Positions 1,057-53,774 of a stretch of 64,000 nt of DNA are shown one piece after another (the stretch's first letter is position 1; each line of letters opens with the position of its first letter). The notes under the pieces are model-generated. The model searched no databases. It was not told where the DNA came from and worked only from the letters and a program-made list of their open reading frames with translations. The position numbers and the translations under genes are program-made. Source of the DNA: an uncultured Actinomycetota bacterium (GTDB lineage Bacteria; Actinomycetota; Actinomycetes; JAHEKZ01); the NCBI GenBank assembly GCA_963726755.1, contig CAVSDB010000002.1, positions 154,889 to 218,888 of the forward strand, given 5' to 3'.

Positions 1057-2974
1057 TCGGTTTCTCGCGGTCCTTCGCCAGTTGCTCGACCTGGCGCAGC
1101 CCGTCGACAACACCTCGCGCATACGCAGCAGCGCCGCTGTACGTCAGGTGAGTCCCATCGGCCACGAAGTACCCACCGCGATCCTTCGACAATCCCGCCC
1201 AGTTGACGACGACGACGTTCTTCAACCCACGCGTGGCCTTATCGATCGCAGTGTTGCTTTGATCCATCCACGGAATCTGGGCACGGACGTTCACAAGGAC
1301 TATGCCCTCGATGTCGTCAAGGTCGACGAGCAGTTCGCGAAGGTCTTCCTCAACCGGAATGCCGTTGGTTCCGGTTTGGATGACGAGGAGTGGAGCGAGC
1401 TTGTCGAACTTCAAGCGTTGACGTATCCGGGCGATTGCGTCGTACGGCTGTCGGCCGACCTCGGCATCGAAGTGCGCATTCGGAAGCCGATCGATGATCG
1501 CATTTCTCGCGCTCAACGCGACTGAGTCGCCGACGACCGTCACGCGTCGTTGTGACAAGGGGACCGACTGGTGCTGGTGGTCTTTGCCGCCTCCGCGACC
1601 CGGATGTTGGGTGTTTTCGTTATCGTCCTTCTTCGGCCCGAGGGTGCCGGCTCCTACCGAAGTGACGCCGCCCAGGTACGTCGAACTGTCGACGATGGGG
1701 ACCTGTGCTAGTGCGACTCCCCCGACCACGAGTGTCGCGGCGCTCGCGACGCCCACCCCAATCCAGCGGAAGCGGGTGTGGGAATCTCCTGCGCGAAGGC
1801 GTCGCCACGACGCGCCTAAGGCACCGCGGCGAATGGGCATCTCGACCCACCGATAGCTGGCCTCGGCACAGACACCAGTGAGGGCTAGGGAGGTCAGCGC
1901 CGCCGCCCAGCCTGAGTACGGCAAATCGATCGTGGGGCGGGTCACCAAGAAGATGGGCCAGTGCCAGAGGTAAATGCCGTAGGAGCGGGTCCCAAGCCAG
2001 CGCAGTACTCGGTTCCCGAGCCCCCGGCCGAATTGGCTGGCTGGGTGCGAAGCAGCCATCACTAGCCCAGCGGTCACTATCGCGAACACCAAAAAGCCAC
2101 CGCGGTAGAGCCAGGTCGAGGTGTCGGGTAGCCACAAAAAGAACCACCCCATGACGAGCATGGAGACGATGCCAACCGTCGTCAGGAAGACCTGTGCAGA
2201 CTTCGGAACGAAAGTCGGCAGACGCGAGGGTCGCCACACAACCGCAAGCGCGGCACCAACCATCACCGTCATCGCATGTGTGTCGGACCCGAAGTACACC
2301 CGCGCCGTATCGGTGAGTGCAGGAATGTGTTCGTGGACAGCGAGCGTGGCCATCCAGATGGTCGACGCAACTGCGCCGATCAACGCCGTGATACCAACAC
2401 CGCGTCGCCCCCACGGTCGCCAAACCAACAACAAGACCGTCGGCCAGATCAGATAGAACTGCTCCTCGAGTGCGAGTGACCACAAGTGCTGAAGCATCGG
2501 CGGTCGACCGATGACTTCGAAGTAACTGCGGGAGTCGAAGATGTACCACCAGTTCGTGGTGTAGGTCAGCGACGACAAGCACGTCCTGGCGGAATTGTGA
2601 CGCCGCATCACGTGCAACGGTCAGGCACAACACCGCAGTGAAGGCGAGAACGACCAGCAGCGCCGGTAGCAGTCGCCGCGCACGCCGTAAGTAGAACTGC
2701 TTGAAGCGGAGGGAGCCGTGGCTTTCGACTTCTTCGAGCAGCAGGTGGTGATGAGGAATCCGGACAGCACGAAGAAGGTGTCAACACCGAGGTAGCCCCC
2801 GGGAAAGATTCTCGCTGGCAGGTGAAAGAGGAGTACGGCGGTGACCGCGATGGCGCGAACTCCGTCGAGTCCGGGAAGGTACGGCAATCGCTGAGGGCTC
2901 GGCCAGTTCGGTGAGCGACGCTTGGATTTAGTCGCGCTTATGCCCGAACCAGTGTCGACAGTTACTTCGGGCAT
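1049..2974 (-). CDS. Acyltransferase family 3 (OafA/YrhL-like) with C-terminal SGNH domain; frameshifted near 2620-2760
   Basis: The N-terminal acyltransferase-3 motif (LPYLPGLDGVRAIAVTAVLLFHL...GYLGVDTFFVLSGFLIT) lies in ORF 2621..3142. The TM body and the GDS-type SGNH tail lie in ORF 1049..2617, in a different frame. Confidence 0.65.
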
Positions 2975-3021
2975 TTGGTCGAGTGTAACGGCGCCCGCCG
3001 ACGATCCGCACCGCCCAAAAG

Positions 3022-4634
3022 TCAGGCGAATCGGACTCGCCAAGTTGCATGTCCGGCGCGAAGTAGGCCATAGGTGATGGCATCGGACAACGCCGACCAG
3101 GACGCTGCGATGACGTTCTCGTGAACTCCGATTGTGTCCCACTCGCCACGACCGTCACTGGTCTCGATCAGGACTCGAGTGACCGATGCGGTCCCCTCGC
3201 GTCCCTCAAGGATTCGCACCTTGTAGTCAACGAGTTCCAACGCATTCAGCTCTGGGTAGATCTGAGACAGTGCCTGCCGCAGAGGCGTTGTCCAGGGCGT
3301 TGACCGGCCCGTTGCCCTCGCCGGTGGCAACGATGCGCTCACCGTTGGCGTACAGCTTGACGGTGGACTCGCTGACGATCGCCGCGTCGGTTCGCTGCTC
3401 GACGATCACCCGCCAGGACTCGACCGTGAAGTGGCGACGGGCCTTGCCGAAGACCACTTCGTCGACCAGCAGCTCAAACGAGGCGTCTGCCGCCTCGAAG
3501 CTGTACCCCTCTGCCTCGAGTTCCTTGACCCGATCGACGACGCGACCGACCGCGTCCTTGTCTGACAGATCGATGCCGAGCTCTCGACCCTTGAGCTCGA
3601 TGGAGGCCCGACCGGCCATCTCGGTGACGAGCACCCGCATGTCGTTGCCGACGACGACTGGGTCGATGAAGTTGTACAGGTCTGGCGAAACTTTGATCGC
3701 ACTTGCGTGCAGCCCGGCCTTGTGGGCGAATGCCGAAACTCCGACGTATGCCTGATGCGTGTTTGGTGCGATGTTCGCAATCTCGGCAAGGGCGTGCGAG
3801 ACCCGAACCATTTCCGACAGCTTGCCTTCGGGCAGCACTCTGCGATCGAGTCGAGTCTCGAGGTTTCCGACGACGGCAAACAGGTCTGCGTTCCCTGTGC
3901 GTTCGCCGTATCCGTTGGCGGTGCACTGAACGTGGGTAGCGCCAACCTCGACGGCCGCCACCGTGTTGGCGACCGCGCACGACGTGTCGTCCTGGCAGTG
4001 GATTCCGATTCGAACGTCGTCGGTCCGCGTCCATCACCTCGCCAGCGATGCGCTGGATACCGGACGGCAGCATCCCTCCGTTGGTGTCACACAGCACAGC
4101 CACGTCGGCACCGGCCTCACGCGCAGCCTCGATAACTCTTACGCCGTAGTCAGGGTCTCGGTAGGTACCCGTCGAAGAAGTGCTCGAGATCGACGAAGAC
4201 CCGGCGACCCTCGTCCACGAGGAACTGGACGGTGTCGGAGACCATCGCGAGGTTCTCCTCCGGCGTGGTCCGAAGCGCCTCTTTGACGTGCCTCAGGTCA
4301 GACTTGGCAACCAAGGTGACGACCGGTGTCTGGGCTGCAAGCAGTGCCAACACTTGCGGATCATCGGCAACCTTTTGGTCGGGCCGTCGAGTCGCACCGA
4401 AGGCAACCAACTGCGCGCAAGTCAGTGCGAGTTCGGTTCGGGCACGCTCAAAGAACTCGGTGTCCTTCGGCAATGCACCGGGCCAACCTCCTTCGATGAA
4501 ACCGACACCGAGTTCGTCCAACAGTCTCGCGACCGACAACTTGTCAGCGACGGAGTACGAAATCCCTTCGCGCTGGGCACCATCGCGCAGCGTGACGTCG
4601 TACACGTGAAATGCGTCGTCGGGCCGACTCATTG
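3022..4634 (-). pseudogene. cimA: Citramalate synthase CimA-like (LeuA/homocitrate synthase family), at least 4 frameshifts
   Basis: N-terminus [20 protein letters not shown]...[16 protein letters not shown] (CimA-type GWPG motif) is in ORF 4150..4815. LCDTNGG is in ORF 3474..4103, the middle in 3227..3961, and the LeuA-dimer C-terminal domain in 3022..3342. Confidence 0.7.
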
Positions 4635-5596: not shown

Positions 5597-6523
5597 ATGA
5601 TCGCGCAGCCGTAACGTCACCGGACCTGGCTCTCCCTCACCGACGGTCCAACTGCGGTCCGCAGACTTCACGTGGCCAACGGGCGTGATTACAGCGGCCG
5701 TGCCGCACGCAAACACTTCACTGATGGTGCCGTCGAGATTGCCCTCACGCCATTGCTCGACGTTGATTCGCTCTTCGCTGGCAGGGATCCCAAGGTCTGC
5801 GGCGACGGTCAGCAACGAGTCGCGCGTGATTCCCGGCAGCAGCGCGCCGGTAAGCGTTGGAGTCACAACACGAGCGTCTGCACCGGTGCCGTAGACGAAG
5901 TAGAGGTTCATGCCGCCCATCTCTTCGACCCATCGGTGCTCAGCTGCGTCCAACCAGACGACCTGGTCGCATTCGTGCTCGGTCGCCTGCGCTTGCGCGA
6001 TGAGCGATGCCGCATAGTTCCCCGCGCACTTGGCTTCGCCGGTTCCGCCAGGTGCCGCCCGCACGTACTCGGTCGACAGCCAGACCGATACCGGTTTAAC
6101 ACCGCCGCGGAAGTACGCACCAGCTGGCGAAGCAATGAGCAGGAAGAGGTACGAACTGGCCGGTTTGACGCCAAGGCCGACCTCGGTGGAGAACATGAAC
6201 GGACGCAGGTACAGGCTCATCTCATCGCTGGTCGGGACCCACGTGCGGTCTTGCTGCACCAGCGCACCGATTGCGTCGACGAAGAGGTCCTCGGGTAGTT
6301 CGGGCATGGCCAATCGCGCTGCGGATTTCTGAAACCGTCGAGCGTTCAACGTTGGCCGAAACGTGGCGATGGAACCGTCGGCGCGGTGATAGGCCTTAAG
6401 CCCCTCGAAGATCTCCTGCCCGTAGTGAAGAGCCATCGTCGCTGGGTCGAGTTCCAGTGGGCCATACGGAACGAGTTCGGCGTCGTGCCAGCCGCGACCG
6501 TCGGTCCATTGGATCGTGACCAT
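5438..6523 (-). CDS. ilvE: Branched-chain amino acid aminotransferase
   Basis: Full-length similarity to actinobacterial IlvE (MALHYGQEIFEGLKAY..., GTAAVITPVGHVK). The C-terminal tail looks extended, so a frameshift may remove the native stop. Confidence 0.85.
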   Translation of the reverse strand: MVTIQWTDGRGWHDAELVPYGPLELDPATMALHYGQEIFEGLKAYHRADGSIATFRPTLNARRFQKSAARLAMPELPEDLFVDAIGALVQQDRTWVPTSDEMSLYLRPFMFSTEVGLGVKPASSYLFLLIASPAGAYFRGGVKPVSVWLSTEYVRAAPGGTGEAKCAGNYAASLIAQAQATEHECDQVVWLDAAEHRWVEEMGGMNLYFVYGTGADARVVTPTLTGALLPGITRDSLLTVAADLGIPASEERINVEQWREGNLDGTISEVFACGTAAVITPVGHVKSADRSWTVGEGEPGPVTLRLRDHLLDLQHGRIDDPHGWMHPLVPASLTHLTSPGSVQVSETARVASLLRCQVPLG

Positions 6524-13508: not shown

Positions 13509-15096
13509 CTACTTCCGCTTCGCCAACTCGGCGTCGTCGACGAGTAGGTCCAACGTCCGGGTGCTCATGTCCAGCCGGATGCGATCGCCGTTCGCGACGT
13601 AGGCGATGGGTCCACCCTTCGGCGCTTCGGGAGCGACATGGCCGATGCAGAATCCAGCAGTAGCGCCGGAGAATCGTCCGTCGGTGACGAGCATGACGTC
13701 CTTGCCCAGTCCGGCTCCCTTGATCGCAGCCGTGACCGCGAGCATCTCGCGCATCCCTGGACCACCGACCGGACCTTCGTAACGGATCACGACGACGTCG
13801 CCGGCCTCGATCTGACCGTGGGTGACAGCAGCCATCGCGTCCTTTTCGTCGTCGAAGACCTTTGCGGTGCCCTCGAACACTGGTCGGTCGATGCTGGCCG
13901 CTTTGATGACTGCCCCTTCTGGCGCCAGCGACCCCTTGAGGATGGCTAGTCCGCCGGTCGGATGAATCGGCGTCGCGACGCTGACGATCACCGTGCCGTC
14001 CGGCTTTGGCGGATCAAGTTCGTCAAGGTTCTGCGCAAGCGTCCGGCCGGTCACCGTCATCACGTCGCCGTGCAGCAGTCCGGCGTCCAGCAGTTCACGC
14101 ATCACGACAGGCACGCCACCGATGCGGTCGATGTCGTTCATGACGAAACGTCCGAACGGCTTGACGTCTGCCAAGTGCGGCGTGCGATCGCCAACCCGGT
14201 TGAAGTCGTCGATGTCGAGATCGAGTTCGGCCTCATGGGCGATGGCCAACAGGTGCAGCACAGCATTCGTCGAACCACCGAGCGCCATGACAACGGCGAT
14301 CGCGTTCTCAAACGCCTCCATCGTCATGACGTCGCGGGCGGTGATGCCCTTGCGCAACAACTCGACGACGGCTTCTCCGGAACGGAACGCGTACTCGTCA
14401 CGTCGTTTGTCGACGGCGGCCGGAGCCGCACTGCCCGGCAGCGACATGCCCAACGCCTCACCGACACTGGCCATGGTGTTCGCGGTGAACATCCCGCCGC
14501 ACGCGCCTTCACCCGGGCACGCCTGACGTTCGATCTCGTCGAGTTGACCTTGAGTGATGCGACCAAGTGCACAAGCGCCGACGCCTTCGAACGCGTCTTG
14601 GATCGTGACGTCCTTGTCGCCCACCCGACCCGGGAGGATCGATCCCGCGTAGACGAAGACGCTCGAGAGGTCGAGCCGGGCAGACGCCATCAACATGCCG
14701 GGCAGCGACTTATCGCAGCCCGGCGAACGTGACCGACCCGTCCATGCGCTCGGCGTGGATGACGGTCTCGACCGAGTCAGCGATCACCTCGCGACTGACC
14801 AGTGAGGCTCGCATGCCCTCGTGACCCATTGAGATGCCGTCGGACACCGAGATCGTGCCGAACTCCATCGGGAATCCACCAGCGGCGAAGACGCCTTCCT
14901 TCGCCTTTGCCGCCAACCGCTTGAGCGACAGATTGCACGGCGTGATCTCGTTCCAACTCGACGCGATGGCGATCTGCGGCTTGTCCCAGTCCTCATCGGT
15001 CATCCCGACGGCGCGCAACATCGCACGGTTTGGTGCGCGCTCCATGCCGTCGGTGACGTCGCGACTGCGCGGCTTGATGTCAGGCGTCTGGCTCAT
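13509..15096 (-). CDS. ilvD: Dihydroxy-acid dehydratase, frameshift near 14700
   Basis: The N-terminus ([31 protein letters not shown]..., ITPCN) is in ORF 14710..15096. The remainder is in ORF 13509..14696. Confidence 0.85.
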
Positions 15097-15725
15097 GGGT
15101 CGAGCCTACGGTTACCCAGACGTCCGCCACTTCATGGCCTCGACGCAAGCCTCGGGCCTCGAACTTGGTCACTGGACGATCCGCCGGACGCGGCGCGAAT
15201 CCGTCGTAGGGATTGACCAGGGCGTCGTTCGCCGCGAATACCTTGACCATTTGTTTGGCGTAACCGGGATCGTCGGTAGCGCAGTGGATGAACGCTCCTG
15301 GCGCTAACCGGGAGATCAACAGTTCAACGAACGGTGCCTGGACGAGGCGACGCTTTTGCTGTCGGATCTTCGGCCAGGGATCGGGAAAGTAGATCCTGGC
15401 GCCGGCCAGCGAATCGGGCGCGATCATCAGATCGAGCACCTCGACCGCATCACCCACGATCGCGCGGACGTTGTCGACACCAGCCTGCTCAGCGTGGGCG
15501 AAGAGACTGCCGATCCCCGGCGTGTGGACGTCGATGGCCAAGATGTCGACGTCAGGTGCGGCCGACGGCCTGCTCGACGGTGGTTGCGCCCATGCCGCTG
15601 CCGATGTCGATCACCAGCGGCGCCATCCGTCCAAACGACTGCGCGGGATTCCAGACGGTCTCCTGCATCGGGACCAGCCACTGATCGCTGAGTCGGTCGA
15701 ATGCGTCGCTCTGGGTGGCGGTCAT
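15080..15725 (-). CDS. trmB: tRNA (guanine46-N7)-methyltransferase, frameshift near 15545
   Basis: N-terminus [16 protein letters not shown]...VIDIGSGMG is in ORF 15552..15791. The C-terminus ([11 protein letters not shown]..., HCATD) is in ORF 15080..15541. Confidence 0.75.
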
Positions 15726-21162: not shown

Positions 21163-21459
21163 CTACTCCTCGTCCAGGATTCGCGGAACCCGGAACCGGT
21201 TGTCCTCAGCTGCCGGTGCAGCGGCGAGGGCCTCGTCCGCCGTCAGGCACGGCCCGATTTCGTCCGGGCGAGTCACGTTGACGACCGGAACGGCGTGAGT
21301 CGTGGGGGGTACGTCGTCCGCCGCCACTTCGGAGACCCGGGCCACCGCCCCGAGGATCACCTCGAGTTGCGTCCCCAGATGCGCCAGCTCGTCGTCGGTG
21401 AGATCGAGCCTGGATAACCGCGCCAAGTGCGCGACTTCGGCGGGACTGAGGGAGGGCAT
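21163..21459 (-). CDS. gatC: Glutamyl-tRNA(Gln) amidotransferase subunit C
   Basis: 98-aa [28 protein letters not shown]... directly upstream of gatA. Confidence 0.88.
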
Positions 21460-21607
21460 ACCTAGCCTTCAGGGGGCATTGGGGAGACGCCGATGGACGC
21501 GCCCATCCTAGGCAGTCCTCCATTTCCTAAGAACGACGCGTTCTCCCCTTCTCACGCAACAAACTCCCTATTCATCCTGTGGATGCTGCGGCATCCACAA
21601 CCTCAGT

Positions 21608-21633
21608 CCTGTGGAGGCCGCGGCCTCCACAGG
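21608..21633. repeat. Perfect 26-bp palindrome CCTGTGGAGGCCGCGGCCTCCACAGG
   Basis: Equals its own reverse complement. An identical copy lies at 52969..52994. Confidence 0.9.
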
Positions 21634-21642
21634 CAAAAGGGA

Positions 21643-21668
21643 CCTGTGGATCCCGCGGGATCCACAGG
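21643..21668. repeat. Perfect 26-bp palindrome CCTGTGGATCCCGCGGGATCCACAGG
   Basis: Equals its own reverse complement. An identical copy lies at 52907..52932. Confidence 0.9.
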
Positions 21669-21712
21669 ATGAATGCAGAGTTTGTTCACGAGCGAAGGCC
21701 AAGGAGGGGCGG

Positions 21713-23920
21713 CTAGCCGGCTTCGCCGCCTCTTAGGAGGCGGAGGGCTCGCTGTTGCGATGGGTGGCGCAGCAACCAGGTGGTTGCGGACTCACCGTCG
21801 AGCGGGCGACTGACGTACCAACCCTGGATCGCATCGCAGCCGAGTTCGTCGAGCAAGTCCCAGACCTGCTGGGTCTCGACACCTTCGGCGACTGCGCTCA
21901 TGCCCAGACCGTGGGCCAGATCGATGATCGACCGGACGATGGTCACGTCCTCGGAGTCGAGGGTGAGCCGAGAAACGAAGCTGCGGTCGATCTTCAGTTC
22001 AGTGATCGGCATCCGCTTCAGCAGCACCATGGACGAGTACCCGGTGCCGAAGTCGTCGAGGGAACTGGTGACACCGAGTTCACGCAGCGCGCCAAGGGTC
22101 CCCGCGACCTCGTCGGAGTCTCTGGTCAGCACGCGTTCGGTGAGTTCGAGGATGAGCATCGAGGCCGGCACGTCGTGCTTCTCCAGTGCGTCGCTGACCA
22201 CCTTCAGCAGGTCGCCGCTGTGAAGGTCGCGCATCGACACGTTGACGGCGACCGGAACGTGCAAGCCCGCTTGCCGCCAGCGAGCGACCTGCTCGAGCGA
22301 GCGGTCGATCACGTACGCGGTAAGCGGCCCCATCAGCCCCGAGTGCTCGGCCATGGGAATGAAGTCGTCGGGCATCACCAGGCCACGCAGAGGGTGGTGC
22401 CAGCGGACCAGCGCCTCGACGCCGACGACGGCGCCACTCCCGACGGACACCTTGGGCTGGAAGTGGACCTTGAGTTCCTCGTTTTCGAGCCCGTTGCGCA
22501 GACCACCAAGCAACGCGAGTCGCCCAGCGGAGTTCTTGTCGCGGTCAGCGGCGTAAACCTCGACGCCGGTGCGCTCTTCCTTGGCCAGGTACATGGCGAC
22601 GTCGGCTCGTCGGACTATGGGCTCGACGTCTTGGCCGTGCTCGGGGAACACAGCGACGCCAACGCTTGCCTCAAGTTCGAAGAGCATGCCCTCAAGGTGG
22701 AATGGCCTGGTCAGCGCCTCGCGTACCCGCTGCGCGACCTCAACCGCCGCGTCGCAGTCACGGACGGGGTCGAGCAGGACGGCGAACTCGTCACCACCCA
22801 GTCGCGCGACGACGTCTCGGGGACGGAGCGCGCCCTTGATGCGCTGAGCGACCACAGCCAGCAGTCGGTCGCCGACATGGTGGCCGAGCGTGTCGTTGAC
22901 CTCTTTGAACCGGTCAAGGTCGAGCAGGCAGAACCCGACGCTGGTGCCGTTTCGGCGGGCATCCTCGATGGAGTCACCGAGCCGACTCAGCACCATCTTG
23001 CGGTTCGGCAGCCCGGTCAGTGAGTCATGCAGCGACTGGTGCTCCTTCTCACGCGAGATGGACGCCGTTAGGTACACCGCGTAGAGCGGTAGCAGCAGCA
23101 GCGGCAGGTAGACCGGTTCGGCAGCGACGAAGACGACCAGCGGGGACAGCGCGAGCACGGCGAACGTAGTCACGAAGAAGTAGCCAAGCTCGTTGAAAAA
23201 CTCTTCGTGGAACTTGTGACCGTCGCTGGCGGCCAACGTGCACACGAGAGCGTTGTTCACCATGAAGAAGGCAAACCAACCCGAGACGACCCAGATCAAG
23301 TCGCTCGCGACCAAGCCGACCGCGGGGTCGGCAAGCGTGGGCATGCTGACGCCGTCGTAGGCATACCAACCGGCCATGATCGCGGCGGCCGAACCCGCGC
23401 TGATCGTGTACTGACCCACGTTGAACGGAACTTTCCAGGGAGCCTTGCGTCGGGCGATTTCAGCGATGAGGGTTGCGATCGCGAGGAACATCAGCGCTGG
23501 CCACGGGCCGTAGAGGTACATCGCGGCGAACACGAATGCGTGGCTGGTTACGACACCCTGCGGGTCATACCCACCGGCAGCAACGACAGGGCGCAACTCG
23601 CCGAGGAGAATGAGCCCGGCAACCATCCAGAAGGCGGCTGGCGCTTGTGACATCTGCGGGACGGTCTGAACCGCAGCCCAAACAGCCAAAGACACACCGA
23701 CGATGACCGAGAACCACCAACCGACCGCGAACAACGACCACTCGGCGAGCGACGGACGACCTGAGTCCTCGTCTTCGGGCAGCCACGATTCATCGGGTGT
23801 TGCGACACCACCGGGCGCGGTGGTTCCACCGGGCGTTTCGGTCATCACCCACCCTTGCCTTCGTCGACCCGTCTTGAGGCTTTTCGGTCGTGGGCCTGCC
23901 CCAACAGGTCCGGACGTCAC
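21713..23920 (-). CDS. Membrane-anchored GGDEF-EAL protein (diguanylate cyclase/phosphodiesterase)
   Basis: Multi-TM N-terminal region. The GGDEF domain has RLGGDEFAVLL. The EAL domain has ELKIDRSFV and an EGVETQ-type motif. The start could instead be MTETPGG at 23845. Confidence 0.85.
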   Translation of the reverse strand: MTSGPVGAGPRPKSLKTGRRRQGWVMTETPGGTTAPGGVATPDESWLPEDEDSGRPSLAEWSLFAVGWWFSVIVGVSLAVWAAVQTVPQMSQAPAAFWMVAGLILLGELRPVVAAGGYDPQGVVTSHAFVFAAMYLYGPWPALMFLAIATLIAEIARRKAPWKVPFNVGQYTISAGSAAAIMAGWYAYDGVSMPTLADPAVGLVASDLIWVVSGWFAFFMVNNALVCTLAASDGHKFHEEFFNELGYFFVTTFAVLALSPLVVFVAAEPVYLPLLLLPLYAVYLTASISREKEHQSLHDSLTGLPNRKMVLSRLGDSIEDARRNGTSVGFCLLDLDRFKEVNDTLGHHVGDRLLAVVAQRIKGALRPRDVVARLGGDEFAVLLDPVRDCDAAVEVAQRVREALTRPFHLEGMLFELEASVGVAVFPEHGQDVEPIVRRADVAMYLAKEERTGVEVYAADRDKNSAGRLALLGGLRNGLENEELKVHFQPKVSVGSGAVVGVEALVRWHHPLRGLVMPDDFIPMAEHSGLMGPLTAYVIDRSLEQVARWRQAGLHVPVAVNVSMRDLHSGDLLKVVSDALEKHDVPASMLILELTERVLTRDSDEVAGTLGALRELGVTSSLDDFGTGYSSMVLLKRMPITELKIDRSFVSRLTLDSEDVTIVRSIIDLAHGLGMSAVAEGVETQQVWDLLDELGCDAIQGWYVSRPLDGESATTWLLRHPSQQRALRLLRGGEAG

Positions 23921-47249: not shown

Positions 47250-47693
47250 GTGTCTGTACAGCCAGAGTTGGCCGACGATCCACTGTTCTTGGCCATCGAC
47301 CATGTCGGCGTCGCCGTTGCCGACCTCGACGAGGCGATCGCCTACTACGCGGCGACGTTCGGGATGTCCGTGGTCCACCAGGAGTTCAACGAGGAGCAGG
47401 GCGTTCGCGAGGCCATGCTCGGCGTCGGTGACTCGGGCTCGTACGTGCAATTACTGGCGCCGCTGAACGCCGAATCCCCCATCGGCAAGTTCCTCGACAA
47501 GTGGGGACCGGGGTTGCAGCAGGTGGCCTACCGCGTGGCCGACGTACGGCAGGCCGCCGATACGCTTCGGTCACGAGGGGTCGAATTGCTCTACGACGAG
47601 CCTTGCGCAGGCACCGCAGGGGCCCTCATCAACTTCATCCATCCCAAAGACGCCGGTGGAGTTCTGATCGAACTCGTCGAACCGGCCCGATAG
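47250..47693 (+). CDS. mce: Methylmalonyl-CoA epimerase (VOC/glyoxalase family)
   Basis: AIDHVGVAV... and HPKDAGGVLIELVE metal-binding blocks; 147 aa. Confidence 0.85.
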   Translation: MSVQPELADDPLFLAIDHVGVAVADLDEAIAYYAATFGMSVVHQEFNEEQGVREAMLGVGDSGSYVQLLAPLNAESPIGKFLDKWGPGLQQVAYRVADVRQAADTLRSRGVELLYDEPCAGTAGALINFIHPKDAGGVLIELVEPAR

Positions 47694-47703
47694 AGAGACC
47701 GAC

Positions 47704-49041
47704 GTGCAACAGATCCTCGACGCGATCCTCTCCCCCGACACCTCGTCAGAGGACTTCGCGAACCTGCCCGTCCCCGAGCACTACACCGGCGCGATCCTCC
47801 GGCAAGAGGACGAGACGATGTTCGAGGGCGTCATCACCAGGGACCGCGACCCTCGCAAGGCTCTGCGCATCGAGGACATCCCGACCCCAGAACTCGGTCC
47901 CGGCGAAGCGCTCATCGCCGTCATGGCGTCGTCCATCAACTACAACACCGTGTGGTCAAGCATCTTCGAACCGGTGTCGACGTTCTCGTTCCTGCGGCGG
48001 TACGGACGCACGTCCCCGCTCGCCAAGCGACACGACCTGCCGTACCACGTGCTGGGCTCGGATCTGTCCGGCGTCGTGTTGCGCACCGGTCCAGGCGTGC
48101 ATGCGTGGCAGCCCGGGCAAGAGGTCGTCGCCCACTGCGCGTCCGTCGAACTTGAGAGCCCACTCGGTCACAACGACACCATGCTCGACCCCGAACAGCG
48201 AATCTGGGGATTCGAGACCAACTTCGGCGGGCTTGCTCAGTTGGCGTTGGTCAAAGCCAACCAACTGCTCGACAAGCCGAAGCACCTGACGTGGGAAGAA
48301 GCCGCTTGCCCTGGGTTGGTCAATTCAACGGCGTACCGACAGTTGGTCAGCCGCAACGGTGCAGGCATGAAGCAAGGCGACATCGTGCTGATCTGGGGAG
48401 CCAGCGGCGGACTCGGTTCCTACGCAACGCAGATGGCGCTCAACGGCGGAGCGACGCCGGTCTGCGTGGTGTCGTCGCCTGAGAAGGCCGCCATTGTGCG
48501 CAGCATGGGCGCGGATCTGATCATCGATCGCAATGCAGAGGGCTTCAAGTTCTGGCAGGACGAGCACACCCAGGACCCCAAAGAATGGCAGCGCCTGGGC
48601 AAGGCGATTCGCGATCTCACTGGCGGCGACGACGTTGACATCGTCTTCGAACATCCGGGCCGTGAGACGTTCGGAGCCAGCGTGTACGTCGCGCGCAAGG
48701 GCGGCACGATCGTCACGTGCGCCTCGACGTCTGGCTTCATGCACGAGTACGACAACCGCTACCTCTGGATGAATCTCAAGCGCATCATCGGATCGCACTT
48801 CGCGAACTATCGCGAAGCGTGGGAGGCCAACCGCTTGATTCAACGCGGCAAAGTGCATCCGACGTTGTCGAAGGCATACCCGTTGGCCGACACCGGGCAG
48901 GCCGCGTACGAAGTGCATCGCAACATGCACCAAGGCAAGGTCGGCGTGCTGTGCCTGGCGCCAGAAGAAGGTCTCGGTGTCAGCAATCCTGAGTTGCGAG
49001 CCAAGCACCTCGACGAAATCAACCGCTTCCGCGACGTCTAG
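47704..49041 (+). CDS. ccr: Crotonyl-CoA carboxylase/reductase
   Basis: 445-aa MDR enzyme with the CCR-specific N-terminal extension and high full-length similarity to Streptomyces/Rhodobacter Ccr. Confidence 0.88.
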   Translation: MQQILDAILSPDTSSEDFANLPVPEHYTGAILRQEDETMFEGVITRDRDPRKALRIEDIPTPELGPGEALIAVMASSINYNTVWSSIFEPVSTFSFLRRYGRTSPLAKRHDLPYHVLGSDLSGVVLRTGPGVHAWQPGQEVVAHCASVELESPLGHNDTMLDPEQRIWGFETNFGGLAQLALVKANQLLDKPKHLTWEEAACPGLVNSTAYRQLVSRNGAGMKQGDIVLIWGASGGLGSYATQMALNGGATPVCVVSSPEKAAIVRSMGADLIIDRNAEGFKFWQDEHTQDPKEWQRLGKAIRDLTGGDDVDIVFEHPGRETFGASVYVARKGGTIVTCASTSGFMHEYDNRYLWMNLKRIIGSHFANYREAWEANRLIQRGKVHPTLSKAYPLADTGQAAYEVHRNMHQGKVGVLCLAPEEGLGVSNPELRAKHLDEINRFRDV

Positions 49042-49081
49042 CGCGAACTGTCGCTGAGCCGCCGACTTTCCCACTCCCGGC

Positions 49082-49133
49082 CAAGTTGCTAGGCGAAACG
49101 GGCGCTATAGCGCCCGTTTTGCCTAGCAACTTC
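49082..49133. terminator. Bidirectional intrinsic terminator (52-bp near-perfect hairpin) between convergent ccr and hydrolase genes
   Basis: CAAGTTGCTAGGCGAAACGGGCGC-TATA-GCGCCCGTTTTGCCTAGCAACTTC. GC-rich stem with a T-run on the plus side. Confidence 0.65.
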
Positions 49134-49191
49134 GCCGGAATGGTCGGTGGCTAGTCGGCGACGCGGGCGAGCAGGTCGCTGAGGGCGGTCG

Positions 49192-50798: not shown

Positions 50799-51092
50799 TC
50801 AATCGCACTCGCCCGCGATGGTCTCTTCAGGCCAGACGACGACGTGCGGCGTCGCCGGCGGGATCTCCTGGTCGCAGCCTGGGCAGCGATAGTCCTTGGT
50901 CGACGTCGACCCTCGGATCGGTGAGACGACCCAGACCTCGCCCTGCCACTCGACCGTCTGTTGGGTCTTGACCGGCGACGGAGGTCGTCCCTTGGGACGA
51001 CGTCGGCTCACGACCGTCCCGCAACTACGCGTAGACGCGGAAGCCGCGGCCGGACTTGCGACCGAGGTACCCGGCCGTGACCAGGTGCTCAA
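50799..51092 (-). CDS. Small hypothetical protein with CPGC motif
   Basis: ORF ...DYRCPGCDQEIPPATPHVVVWPEETIAGECD. Low confidence; the start is unclear. Confidence 0.2.
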   Translation of the reverse strand: MSTWSRPGTSVASPAAASASTRSCGTVVSRRRPKGRPPSPVKTQQTVEWQGEVWVVSPIRGSTSTKDYRCPGCDQEIPPATPHVVVWPEETIAGECD

Positions 51093-52801
51093 GCAGCGGA
51101 GCTGGCGCGAAGCCGGGCTCGCGGAACTCCAGGTAGAGCGTCCGCTGGATAGCTAGTGCCACGTCGAGCCCGACAACGTCGAGCAGTTCGAACGGACCCA
51201 TCGGGATATCCGCAGCCGACCTTCATCGCGTTGTCAATGTCGTCGGTGGTCGCGTAGTGAGCCTGCAACATGCGCACCGCGTCATTGAGGTACGGGAACA
51301 ACAGCGCGTTGACGATGAATCCAGCGCGGTCTCCGCACGTGACGGGATGCTTGTCCATCCGCTCGCATACTGCACGTACCGACGCGGCAACGCGCTCGCT
51401 GGTGTTGACCGTTTGCACGACCTCGACCAACTTCATGACTGGCGCGGGATTGAAGAAGTGCATCCCAACGACGTCAGGCATCCGGTTCGTCGCTGCGGCA
51501 ATCTCAACGACCGGCAGGCTGGACGTCGTTGTCGCAAGAATGGCGCTCGGCTTCGCAATCTCGTCGAGCGTGGCGAAGATCGCCTGCTTGACGGTGAGCT
51601 CCTCGACGGTTGCTTCGACGAACAAGTCGCAGTCCGCGAGATCGTCGAACGACGTGCTCCCCGCGATGCGCCCAATCGCAGCGTCGCGATCCTTCTCGTC
51701 CAATTTCCCGCGGACGACGGCCTTCTCAAGTGATCGAGCGATGGCGGCCTTGGCTTTCGCGATCTGCTCTTCGCCCCGCGCACGCAGCACAACGTCGAAG
51801 CCGGCCTTGGCGAAAACCTCTGCGATACCGACGGCCATCGTCCCCGAACCGATGACGCCCACCCGCTGGATGGGGATCAGGTCCTGTTCGGCCGCGTCGA
51901 CCGAAGGAGTTCCCGCGTCGGGCACAACGGCCGGTGAGTCAGGGGTCTCGTAGGTGTAGAAACCACGTCCGGTCTTGCGACCATTCATTCCGGCGGTGAC
52001 CATCTGCTTGATGATCGGCGTCGGCGCGTGCAACCGGTCGCGGGTTTGCTTGTACATCGTGTCGAGAATCTCGTACGCAGTGTCGAGCCCGATCAGATCG
52101 AGCAACGCCAGCGGACCCATGGGCAATCCGCAGCCGAGTTTCATCGCCGCGTCGATGTCTTCGCGTGTCGCGTAGCGCTGCTCGTACATCGATGCAGCGT
52201 GATTGAGGTAGCCAAAGAGCAGTGCGTTAGCAATGAACCCTGCCTTGTCACCGACCACGACCGGCACTTTGCCAAGACGTTCGACAAGCGCTTTGGTGTC
52301 GTCGATGACCGAGACATCGGTGACCACCGTGCGAATGACCTCGACGAGTTTGAGCACCGGGGCGGGGTTGAAGAAGTGAAGTCCGATGACCTGTGCTGGT
52401 CGGTGAGTCGATACCGAGATCTCGGTCACCGAAAGGGACGACGTATTCGTGGCCAGGATCTGCGTCGGGACCAGTGATGGCATCCAGCTGAGCAAAGATC
52501 TGCTGCTTCAACTCGAGCTTCTCAGGGACAGCTTCGACGACCAGACTGCAGTCCGCCAGGTCGTTCATCGACGTGCTGAATGTAATGCGATCGAAGATTC
52601 CCTGCTTTTCGTCGTCCGACATCTTCCCGCGCTTCACCGCACGCGAAGTGGACGATTCGACGTGCCCCACACCGCGCTGAAGCGAGTCATCGCCGGTCTC
52701 AACGGCCACTACCTCAAGGCCTGCCGAGCGAAGACTTCGACTATCCCGGCACCCATCGTGCCGAGGCCGACGACGCCAACTTTGGTGAACTCGCGAGTCA
52801 T
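51089..52801 (-). CDS. Tandem (duplicated) 3-hydroxyacyl-CoA dehydrogenase, at least 3 frameshifts
   Basis: Unit 1: MTREFTKVGVVGLGTMGAGI... at 52801, with its C-terminal domain in the 51089..52495 frame. Unit 2 (VGVIGSGTMAVGIAEV...NPAPVMKLVEV...) follows in the same ORF after a linker. Confidence 0.7.
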
Positions 52802-52906: not shown

Positions 52907-53020
52907 GCCTGTGGATCCCGCGGGATCCACAGGTGACAAATCGCCCACAGTCCGTCGGTTGATCCACAGCCTGTGGAGGCCGCGGCCTCCACAGGCACGC
53001 AATCCAACAATGCATCCACA
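52907..53020. repeat. Second cluster of CCTGTGGA-N10-TCCACAGG palindromes plus extra TCCACAG half-sites
   Basis: Perfect 26-mers at 52907..52932 and 52969..52994, identical to those at 21643 and 21608. Additional half-sites GATCCACAG (52960), CCCACAG (52944) and GCATCCACAA (53011). Confidence 0.85.
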
Positions 53021-53096
53021 AGAATGCGTCAGCAGCCGCCAAGTGTCAGCCGCCTCACGATTGGTCGCCGCCGCTGGCCGGACATACTGATGCCCT

Positions 53097-53774
53097 ATGC
53101 GCCTGGTCATTGCCCGCTGCAGCGTCGACTACACGGGTCGGCTGACCGCTCATCTCCCCCTCGCAACCCGGCTCATCCTCGTGAAGGCGGACGGCTCGGT
53201 ATCGATTCACGCGGACGACCGCGCGTACAAACCATTGAACTGGATGAGCCCGCCCTGTCGAACGACCGAGGACACCGACGACGCCGGGATCGGAACTTGG
53301 ACCGTGATTCATCAAAAGACCGGCGATCAACTGGTCATCACCCTCGAGGAAGTGTTGAGCGATGACTCCCACGAACTCGGAGTCGATCCCGGGCTGCAGA
53401 AGGACGGCGTCGAAGCGCACTTGCAAGCGCTCCTCGCCACGCACATCCAGACACTGGGAGACGGTTGGACGTTGGTGCGCCGCGAGTACGGCACCGCGAT
53501 CGGTCCAGTGGACATCCTGGCCAAGGACGGGTCCGGGAAGAGCGTCGCCATCGAAATCAAGCGCCGGGGAGATATCGACGGGGTTGAGCAGTTGACGCGA
53601 TACCTCGAATTGCTCAACCGCGACCCACTGCTGAGTCCGGTCAGCGGAATCTTCGCCGCTCAGGAGATCAAGCCGCAGGCTCGCGTTCTGGCCGAGGACC
53701 GGGGGATCCGCTGCGTCACGCTCGACTACGACGCCCTGCGCGGACGCATTGATCCCAGCCTGCGGCTGTTCTAG
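53097..53774 (+). CDS. nucS: Endonuclease NucS (EndoMS, mismatch-specific)
   Basis: [16 protein letters not shown]... N-terminal dimerisation domain and C-terminal RecB-like nuclease (GPVDILAKD...AIEIK); intact 225 aa. Confidence 0.88.

Follow-up and report, generated by a model that had tools for sequence, protein, structure and literature searches.

Clustered TGTGGA/TCCACA palindromes in two core-chromosome spacers of an uncultured actinomycete: a candidate REP/REPIN- or MITE-like repeat

A short intergenic spacer that separates a GGDEF/EAL gene from gatC in an uncultured actinomycete holds a dense group of palindromes, and the question this locus raises is whether they make up an operator, a transcript-ending structure, a set of protein-binding boxes or one copy of a repeat. 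In the 64,000-nucleotide stretch of DNA analysed here (the window), both flanking genes lie on the minus strand, with the GGDEF/EAL stop at 21713 and the gatC start at 21459, and GGDEF and EAL Pfam domains are on record for protein P0121, which is identical to the window's GGDEF/EAL product. Two of the palindromes recur, letter for letter, at a second locus, upstream of nucS. From comparisons of sequence, we lean towards reading the two clusters as structurally plastic extragenic repeats, palindromic, specific to this lineage and akin to REP/REPIN or MITE elements; they are not a conserved operator.

Three related palindromes, none of which has a strand of its own, occupy locus 1 at 21576-21601 (A), 21608-21633 (B) and 21643-21668 (C), with gaps of 6-9 nt between them and the common geometry CC-TGTGGA-NNN-(C/T)GCG-NNN-TCCACA-GG. 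B (CCTGTGGAGGCCGCGGCCTCCACAGG) and C (CCTGTGGATCCCGCGGGATCCACAGG) are perfect 26-mers, while A reads CC-TGTGGATGC-TGCG-GCATCCACA-AC, with a 9+4+9 core at 21578-21599, CC at 21576-77 and imperfect ends (40 bits with a covariance model of the palindrome). A preliminary description of this DNA had recorded two perfect 26-mers and a third related palindrome, all of which are indeed present; it had given the difference between the two 26-mers as GG/CC against AT/AT, which is in error, B and C differing as GG/CC against TC/GA. The outer inverted repeat that it drew at 21559..21583 against 21660..21684 exists but is longer, pairing 21558-21599 with 21645-21686 over 42 nt at 86% complementarity. The left outer arm, the left half of this 42-nt repeat, lies on the plus strand at 21558..21575 (AACAAACTCCCTATTCAT) and agrees with the arm of the close relative L041 at 16/18 positions; the right arm, on the minus strand at 21669..21686 (AACAAACTCTGCATTCAT), agrees at 17/18. 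The element thus has terminal inverted repeats at locus 1 (AACAAACTCCCTATTCAT against the reverse complement AACAAACTCTGCATTCAT). A small hairpin, AGAACGACGCGTTC, at 21530..21543 on the plus strand, travels with the outer arm, from which it is separated by 14 nt (12 nt to the arm-adjacent GC dinucleotide); exact copies occur in the relatives L040 and L041, in the latter on the opposite side of the element and again 12 nt from the arm region. No clean target-site duplication was found at the element ends: a 4-nt CACG is present on both sides, with a one-base offset on the left, and the spacers of relatives are too diverged for the junctions to be placed.

With respect to the genes, the palindromes lie 3' of the GGDEF/EAL gene and 117-209 nt upstream of gatC, which agrees with the earlier estimate of roughly 100-220 nt. 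Palindrome C lies 45 nt past the GGDEF/EAL stop codon, and a terminator scan picks up a terminator-like site there on the coding (minus) strand, where C is followed by TCCCTTTTGC; intrinsic terminators are recognised by just such an arrangement, in which a G+C-rich hairpin located 3' of a gene has a T-run behind it on the coding strand. Outside the element, approximately 35-55 nt upstream of gatC, the block TGCCTAGGATGGGCGCGTCCA (21494..21514, minus strand) includes a -10-like TAGGAT, is kept in the window, L040, L041 and L042 even though the remainder of the spacer is not, and is likely to be a promoter or leader element of gatC. L040, which encodes an identical GatC, carries in the gatC leader region a 30-nt insertion relative to the window (GGTAGGGATCCAGCGGAGGGCGGCGGGCAC, L040 32-61), so the spacer varies even within the species; the sequence of L040 breaks off some 10 nt short of the outer arm.

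The clustering of the palindromes is far beyond chance. In the 64-kb window, the palindrome pattern with up to 3 mismatches finds 5 matches against 0.34 expected, a number that 0/100 shuffles reach, and CCTGTGGA occurs 9 times against 2.0 expected, every time at one of the two loci; a covariance model of the palindrome found no further, more diverged copies in the window. As had been proposed, the whole of locus 1 can fold into one long hairpin with B at its tip (RNA -106.6 kcal/mol, z = -10.2; DNA -50.3 kcal/mol, z = -9.9), in which A and its arm pair with C and its arm to give an inverted doublet forming a single hairpin.

The second locus, 31 kb from the first, lies within the 295-nt spacer between two divergent genes, that of 3-hydroxyacyl-CoA dehydrogenase (3HCDH; start 52801, minus strand) and nucS (53097-53774, plus strand), whose nearest named NucS proteins come from 'Actinomycetes bacterium' MAGs. 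This locus, to which the preliminary description had alluded, is at 52908-52995: C (52908..52933) and B (52970..52995) are each 26/26 identical to their counterparts at locus 1. Between them, at 52942..52968 on the plus strand, are two isolated half-sites in direct orientation, CGCCCACA and TGATCCACA, and beyond B, at 53012..53032 on the minus strand, lies half of palindrome A (TGTGGATGC on that strand) together with a shortened arm and flank, recognised by aligning the loci in reverse orientation; GCATCCACA is also among the isolated half-sites of this locus. In this alignment CTGACGCATTCTTGTGGATGC at locus 2 matches CTCACGCA...TTCATCCTGTGGATGC at locus 1. The loci align only in opposite orientation, where they share the order A (or half A)-B-C, the short flank CTSACGCA and the shortened arm; the spacers between the palindromes do not align (9 vs 36 nt and 8 vs 23 nt). 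The full outer arms were not found at locus 2, the arm being truncated or absent there, the fold consists of two separate hairpins only, and the terminator scan gave no terminator-like site.

It had been suggested that the feature might be an assembly artefact if it was not kept in relatives, a concern that is countered by a short-read (megahit) Illumina contig from another sample, L048, whose NucS falls in the same 90% cluster. In it palindrome B and the half-sites TGATCCACA and GCATCCACA are letter for letter the same and the half of A at 53012..53032 is conserved, in flanks that carry about nine substitutions or indels. We reject an artefact since L048 and L041 are independent assemblies and the former repeats part of locus 2, including one palindrome. 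Several core genes in the window are split by frame shifts (13512-15105, 51092-52801 and others), ilvD appearing as two ORFs and 3HCDH shifting frame after about 26 codons (MTREFTKVGVVGLGTMGAGIVEVFAR...); fragmentation of the same kind is present in the relatives L015 and L041, which suggests indel errors of long-read assembly more than pseudogenes.

It is the comparison with relatives that decides between a REP/MITE-like element and an operator, the two readings that the preliminary description had left side by side. The spacer between the GGDEF/EAL gene and gatC measures 253 nt in the window, 177 nt in L041, 86 nt in L042 and 82 nt in L043, and the neighbouring protein (GGDEF/EAL in L041) is 91%, 84% and 76% identical, respectively, to that of the window. 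No trace of the element was found in the spacers of L042 and L043, and the gatC-proximal block TGCCTAGGATGGGCGCGTCCA is nonetheless kept in L042. In L041, where the gene order ligA-GGDEF/EAL-gatC-gatA is that of the window, the spacer contains AGAACGACGCGTTC-ACTAGCGAATTT-GCAACAAACTCCGCATTCAT-GCTGGGGATTCCGCGGAACCACGG, in which a single outer arm is accompanied by a single palindrome that lacks both the TGTGGA and the TCCACA hexamers. A 34-nt stretch of it (arm and palindrome) corresponds to the GGDEF-proximal arm and C of the window at 88% identity in the same orientation, and a 62-nt stretch (small hairpin, 12 nt, arm and palindrome) corresponds to the gatC-proximal half at 73%, inverted relative to the genes. 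The L041 spacer shows no significant fold (z = -1.7); the L041 assembly contains split genes (gatA, ilvD), and sequencing error could partly account for the decay of its palindrome.

A comparable picture was obtained at locus 2, where the spacer between 3HCDH and nucS is 295 nt in the window and shorter, without palindromes, in four relatives with NucS 86-88% identical (L044 and L045, 105 nt each; L046 and L047, 142 nt each); in L015 (NucS 89%) a different gene occupies the position, and its 19.7 kb contain no motif. No extra copy was found in approximately 42 kb from the two closest relatives, and when some 70 kb of sequence from relatives was searched, with mismatches allowed, for arms, small hairpin and palindromes alike, the orthologous L041 site alone was returned. 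Since the elements are missing from the orthologous spacers of relatives, both clusters were added recently, within this lineage, to core-genome spacers that are otherwise short. Orthologous sites with and without the element, such as are sought for MITEs, are thus both at hand, the empty ones being those of L042 and L043 at locus 1 and of L044-L047 at locus 2. A site kept at the orthologous promoter, which an operator or a DnaA-box cluster would lead one to look for, is lacking in L042-L047, and the hexamers are gone in L041. As such, the REP/MITE-like half of the earlier proposal is supported and the operator half is weakened by non-conservation at orthologous promoters.

The collections were scanned with the exact pattern CCTGTGGA-N4-GC-N4-TCCACAGG. 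One genome per species, 185,579 species in all, gave 14 single matches, which is about the level of chance, and none of these representatives carried more than one exact copy; viral contigs gave 0 matches, and the JGI metagenomes gave 23, among which five soil contigs appear related. One of the soil contigs, L017, has two palindromes 30 nt apart, one of them with perfected A-type arms (TGTGGATGC-CGCG-GCATCCACA). Two others, L030 (528-711) and L037 (198-377), have only a 184-bp segment in common, 91% identical and in unrelated flanks, which holds the palindrome CCTGTGGATTCCGCGGAATCCACAGG and a second hairpin, CGTTCTCACG...CGTGAGAACG, and looks like a dispersed structured repeat of a soil bacterium. 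In L021 (578-603) and L026 (1062-1087), the 26-bp palindrome is part of the reading frame of homologous DUF222 (13E12-type) ORFs and is translated as PVDSAEST; two third codon positions distinguish the copies (TCC GCG vs TCA GCT), both changes being synonymous and leaving the palindrome perfect, and because it is coding we do not use it as evidence on the window.

A BLAST search with the 174-bp element against plasmid and phage collections gave no match, and the whole window gave no match to Rfam 15 at gathering score (permissive scans returned only miRNA hairpins, which at 17-27 bits are far below their thresholds of 60-90 and spurious) and no tRNA. Neither a RAYT nor any other transposase is among the 30 window ORFs scanned with Pfam, the neighbours of the repeats being GGDEF/EAL, gatC, 3HCDH and nucS. 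A text search of the literature for the motif returned nothing relevant, and among the papers searched we found none linking REPINs or RAYTs with Actinobacteria. A CRISPR array, which the preliminary description had already set aside, is rejected: the units are non-identical, their gaps are just 6-9 nt and no cas genes occur in the ORFs scanned. Likewise, parS, dif and attC are rejected, their consensus sequences not matching. Elsewhere in the window, at 49077-49138, there is a 62-bp near-perfect palindrome (31+31 nt, 94%; CCGGCCAAGTTGCTAGGCGAAACGGGCGCTA / TAGCGCCCGTTTTGCCTAGCAACTTCGCCGG), about 40 nt past a zinc-ADH gene (47668-49038, plus strand), whose sequence bears no relation to that of the TGTGGA family; it would have no room in the relative L015, where ADH and the gene that follows overlap.

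The symmetry of the palindromes was examined in an alignment of seven, three from the window and four similar ones found in soil contigs, the inner positions having been left free by the search pattern. In this alignment 96.7% of cells are paired, against 33-42% in slid controls, and three inner pairs show changes on both sides (T-A/G-C; G-C/C-G/T-A; C-G/A-T), a degree of covariation that 0/500 shuffles reached. Within the window palindromes alone there are two variable positions, compensated every time, and all pairs are Watson-Crick except for one T/G in palindrome A. Compensated inner pairs would not be expected of two independently bound monomers, and hence we take it that a constraint or a generating mechanism acts upon the palindrome as a whole.

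The repeat reading draws upon identical units in two unrelated spacers, their absence from the orthologous spacers of relatives and decay in L041, the compensated inner pairs, the REPIN-like nested hairpin, an anatomy that matches described REP clusters and REPINs, and soil contigs with the same kind of palindrome, including A-type arms. REPINs are inverted REP doublets that form hairpins, with spacers that vary from copy to copy while the hairpin is kept, and perfect palindromic REP singlets of 20-28 bp have been described (PMC3337134). In common with the RAYT-mobilised REP, BIME and REPIN elements of E. coli and Pseudomonas, the units here are short, G+C-rich, extragenic palindromes of several sequence types, clustered with non-conserved spacers; their inverted doublet folds into one long hairpin, and the singlets are perfect palindromes within the 20-28-bp range (PMC3337134, PMC6006769). 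The 26-bp length falls within the approximately 20-65 nt of extragenic REPs and REPINs, in two spacers, and such elements likewise lie at the 3' ends of genes, differ from species to species and are able to end transcripts or make them more stable (PMC3337134, PMC6006769).

The resemblance is nevertheless incomplete. The guide tetranucleotide of canonical REPs, GT[AG]G, is located 0-2 nt 5' of the hairpin foot (PMC6006769), whereas here GTGG occupies positions 4-7 inside an 11-13-bp stem and the bases 5' of the foot vary; with this placement, and no RAYT or other transposase among the 30 window ORFs, membership of the canonical RAYT-REP class can be no more than tentative. REPs are usually imperfect, unlike the perfect palindromes seen here. 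REP/REPIN families run to tens to hundreds of copies per genome; the 64 kb covered here hold two loci. The host, furthermore, is an uncultured actinomycete, whereas the reference REP families are mainly proteobacterial (PMC6006769). MITEs such as ERIC/IRU, Correia (CREE) and RUP offer a second likeness, in the length of 125-140 bp, the terminal inverted repeats (at locus 1), the hairpin formed by the whole element, the position in transcribed spacers and the presence or absence between related genomes; the present element differs from them in having no clear target-site duplication, no parent IS and a second copy without terminal repeats, and in consisting internally of three palindromes. That only two loci with five units were seen in 64 kb, without a clean target-site duplication and with the outer arms missing at locus 2, counts against a repeat, as do the absence of any multi-copy genome among the 185,579 representatives and of a further copy in the 42 kb from close relatives, and the isolated half-sites, which cannot form hairpins and would better fit a protein-binding array.

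If the clusters are such a repeat, a plausible course of events may be outlined. The building block is the 26-bp G+C-rich perfect palindrome CC-TGTGGA-NNN-CGCG-NNN-TCCACA-GG in at least three variants (A, B and C), which in the fixed order A-B-C make up a composite element of 125-140 bp. Locus 1 holds the complete element, whereas the copy at locus 2 is rearranged and oppositely oriented, its arm being cut short and half-sites added. Such an element may have entered, or grown in, two otherwise short core-chromosome spacers in recent ancestry, spreading by transposition or by copying driven by hairpins or template switching, and it would appear to be unstable, as in the closest relative it is partly inverted, with one half lost and the palindrome decayed. 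The hairpins of locus 1, above all C with the UCCCUUUUG that follows it on the coding strand, may bring the GGDEF/EAL transcript to an end, or stabilise it, before gatC's own promoter is reached, and the element there is probably also a terminator or 3' stabiliser after the GGDEF/EAL gene. The anatomy, the repetition, the empty orthologous sites, the compensated pairs and the capacity to fold are established, whereas the manner of spread and the part played in transcription are inferred.

This last possibility invites the stronger proposition that the structures are nothing but tandem intrinsic terminators or insulators, or an RNA-stability element, selected and evolved in place and neither mobile nor repeated. 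Locus 1 would suit it well, in that three strong hairpins stand 45 nt past the GGDEF/EAL stop and ahead of gatC's conserved promoter block, a T-run comes directly after C on the coding strand and, as RNA, the region folds very stably. However, the genes on either side of locus 2 start in divergent directions, a setting that calls for no terminator, and no terminator-like site is found there; relatives do with hairpin-free spacers of 82-86 nt; that nearly all pairs are Watson-Crick points to symmetry at the level of DNA more than to selection on RNA, and identical 26-mers at two loci require copying rather than convergence. We consider this proposition quite unlikely. Copying of another kind is supplied by local growth, whereby template switching, or repair primed by a hairpin, would have expanded one seed palindrome, the two loci having undergone gene conversion and no transposition machinery being involved. 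The one-armed appearance of L041, of which the element in the window could be the inverted duplication, agrees with such growth, as do the small quasi-palindromes GTTCACGAGCGAA and AGAACGACGCGTTC that flank the arms in flipped orientations and the lack of a transposase among the 30 window ORFs. It leaves unexplained, however, how the A-B-C set, in the same order, reached another and unrelated spacer at a distance of 31 kb, one that relatives have empty, and why similar palindromes occur in unrelated soil contigs, and we give it little credence.

Clusters of DnaA boxes are found outside oriC, as with datA of E. coli and the DnaA-box clusters of B. subtilis, and a likeness of the arms to a DnaA box, which the preliminary description had not noticed and which is new in this analysis, opens a further line of explanation. 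Here the palindromes would be DnaA-box-like sites, or those of another dimeric DNA-binding protein, each comprising two head-to-head boxes 4 bp apart, and clusters of 6-7 boxes would titrate DnaA or regulate gatCAB, nucS and the 3HCDH gene. The palindrome arms end in TCCACAGG, the 3' part of an extended actinobacterial DnaA box. In Nocardiopsis sinuspersici (L013), the oriC and dnaA-promoter regions (2090-3390 and 5630-5921) contain DnaA boxes with a 3' extension, TCCACA being followed by G in 29/35 boxes and by GG in 20/35, which suggests an 11-nt consensus TT(A/G)TCCACAGG in this genome, and upstream of its dnaA lies CC-TGTGGACAG-CGCG-TTGTCCACA-GG, with the same geometry and CGCG spacer. A paired-box palindrome is also present in an Actinoplanes MAG (L010, 6336-6361) and a metagenome contig (L023, 309-334), where the perfect consensus pair CC-TGTGGACAA-CGCG-TTGTCCACA-GG stands immediately before an acpS-like gene, itself succeeded by an Nnr-like one, and could be a conserved DnaA-regulated promoter.

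High-affinity DnaA boxes include TTGTCCACA, TTATCCACA and TGATCCACA (PMC4285127), the last being one of the half-sites at locus 2. When the 9-mers of the window were compared with TTGTCCACA/TTATCCACA, the TCCACA core was perfect in 12 boxes, a 3' GG was frequent and the half-site TGATCCACA agreed at 8/9. Both clusters lie upstream of promoters, each with 6-7 box-like sites per approximately 100 bp, and the three extra direct-orientation half-sites at locus 2, those within L048 being kept there, are not explained by hairpins. The resemblance to box pairs and clusters outside oriC, which lies in the TCCACA(GG) core and the head-to-head boxes with a 4-bp CGCG spacer, as upstream of Nocardiopsis dnaA, is offset by several differences. 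The boxes lack the 5' TT(A/G), matching 6-7/9 consensus positions with GCC, GGA or GCA instead; the half-sites of each palindrome share the same non-consensus triplet in complementary form, a perfect symmetry that independent monomer binding does not predict and that natural box pairs (L003, L013, L014, L029), which are asymmetric at these positions, do not have; and the identity of spacing with other genomes is imposed by the search pattern. Moreover, relatives with 76-88% protein identity have no such clusters at the same promoters, and the one at 91% has lost the hexamers. We therefore regard a DnaA-type binding array as unlikely.

A combination of the two ideas may also be entertained, in which the palindromes would be mobile paired DnaA boxes, that is, a repeat family with DnaA-box-mimicking arms (TCCACAGG) that seeds DnaA-binding clusters in core spacers; we think this improbable. 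The spacers in question adjoin nucS (mismatch repair), ligA, the GGDEF/EAL gene and gatCAB, and, were it true, DnaA titration or DnaA-dependent transcription would have been rewired in an uncultured actinomycete lineage. The DnaA-box likeness of the arms would be of wider interest if binding were shown.

On the reading that we favour, as REP/REPIN- or MITE-like repeats, the feature is an ordinary kind of genomic element, a small palindromic repeat, in a little-studied host. This group of actinomycetes is not known to have any catalogued family of small palindromic repeats of the REP/REPIN type. One orthologous site makes the growth and decay of a palindrome visible between close relatives, and a new family would be of use in typing strains and in marking where assemblies break in these MAGs. 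As the REP families used as reference in earlier work come mostly from Proteobacteria (PMC6006769), a new family here would widen the known range of REP/REPIN-type elements.
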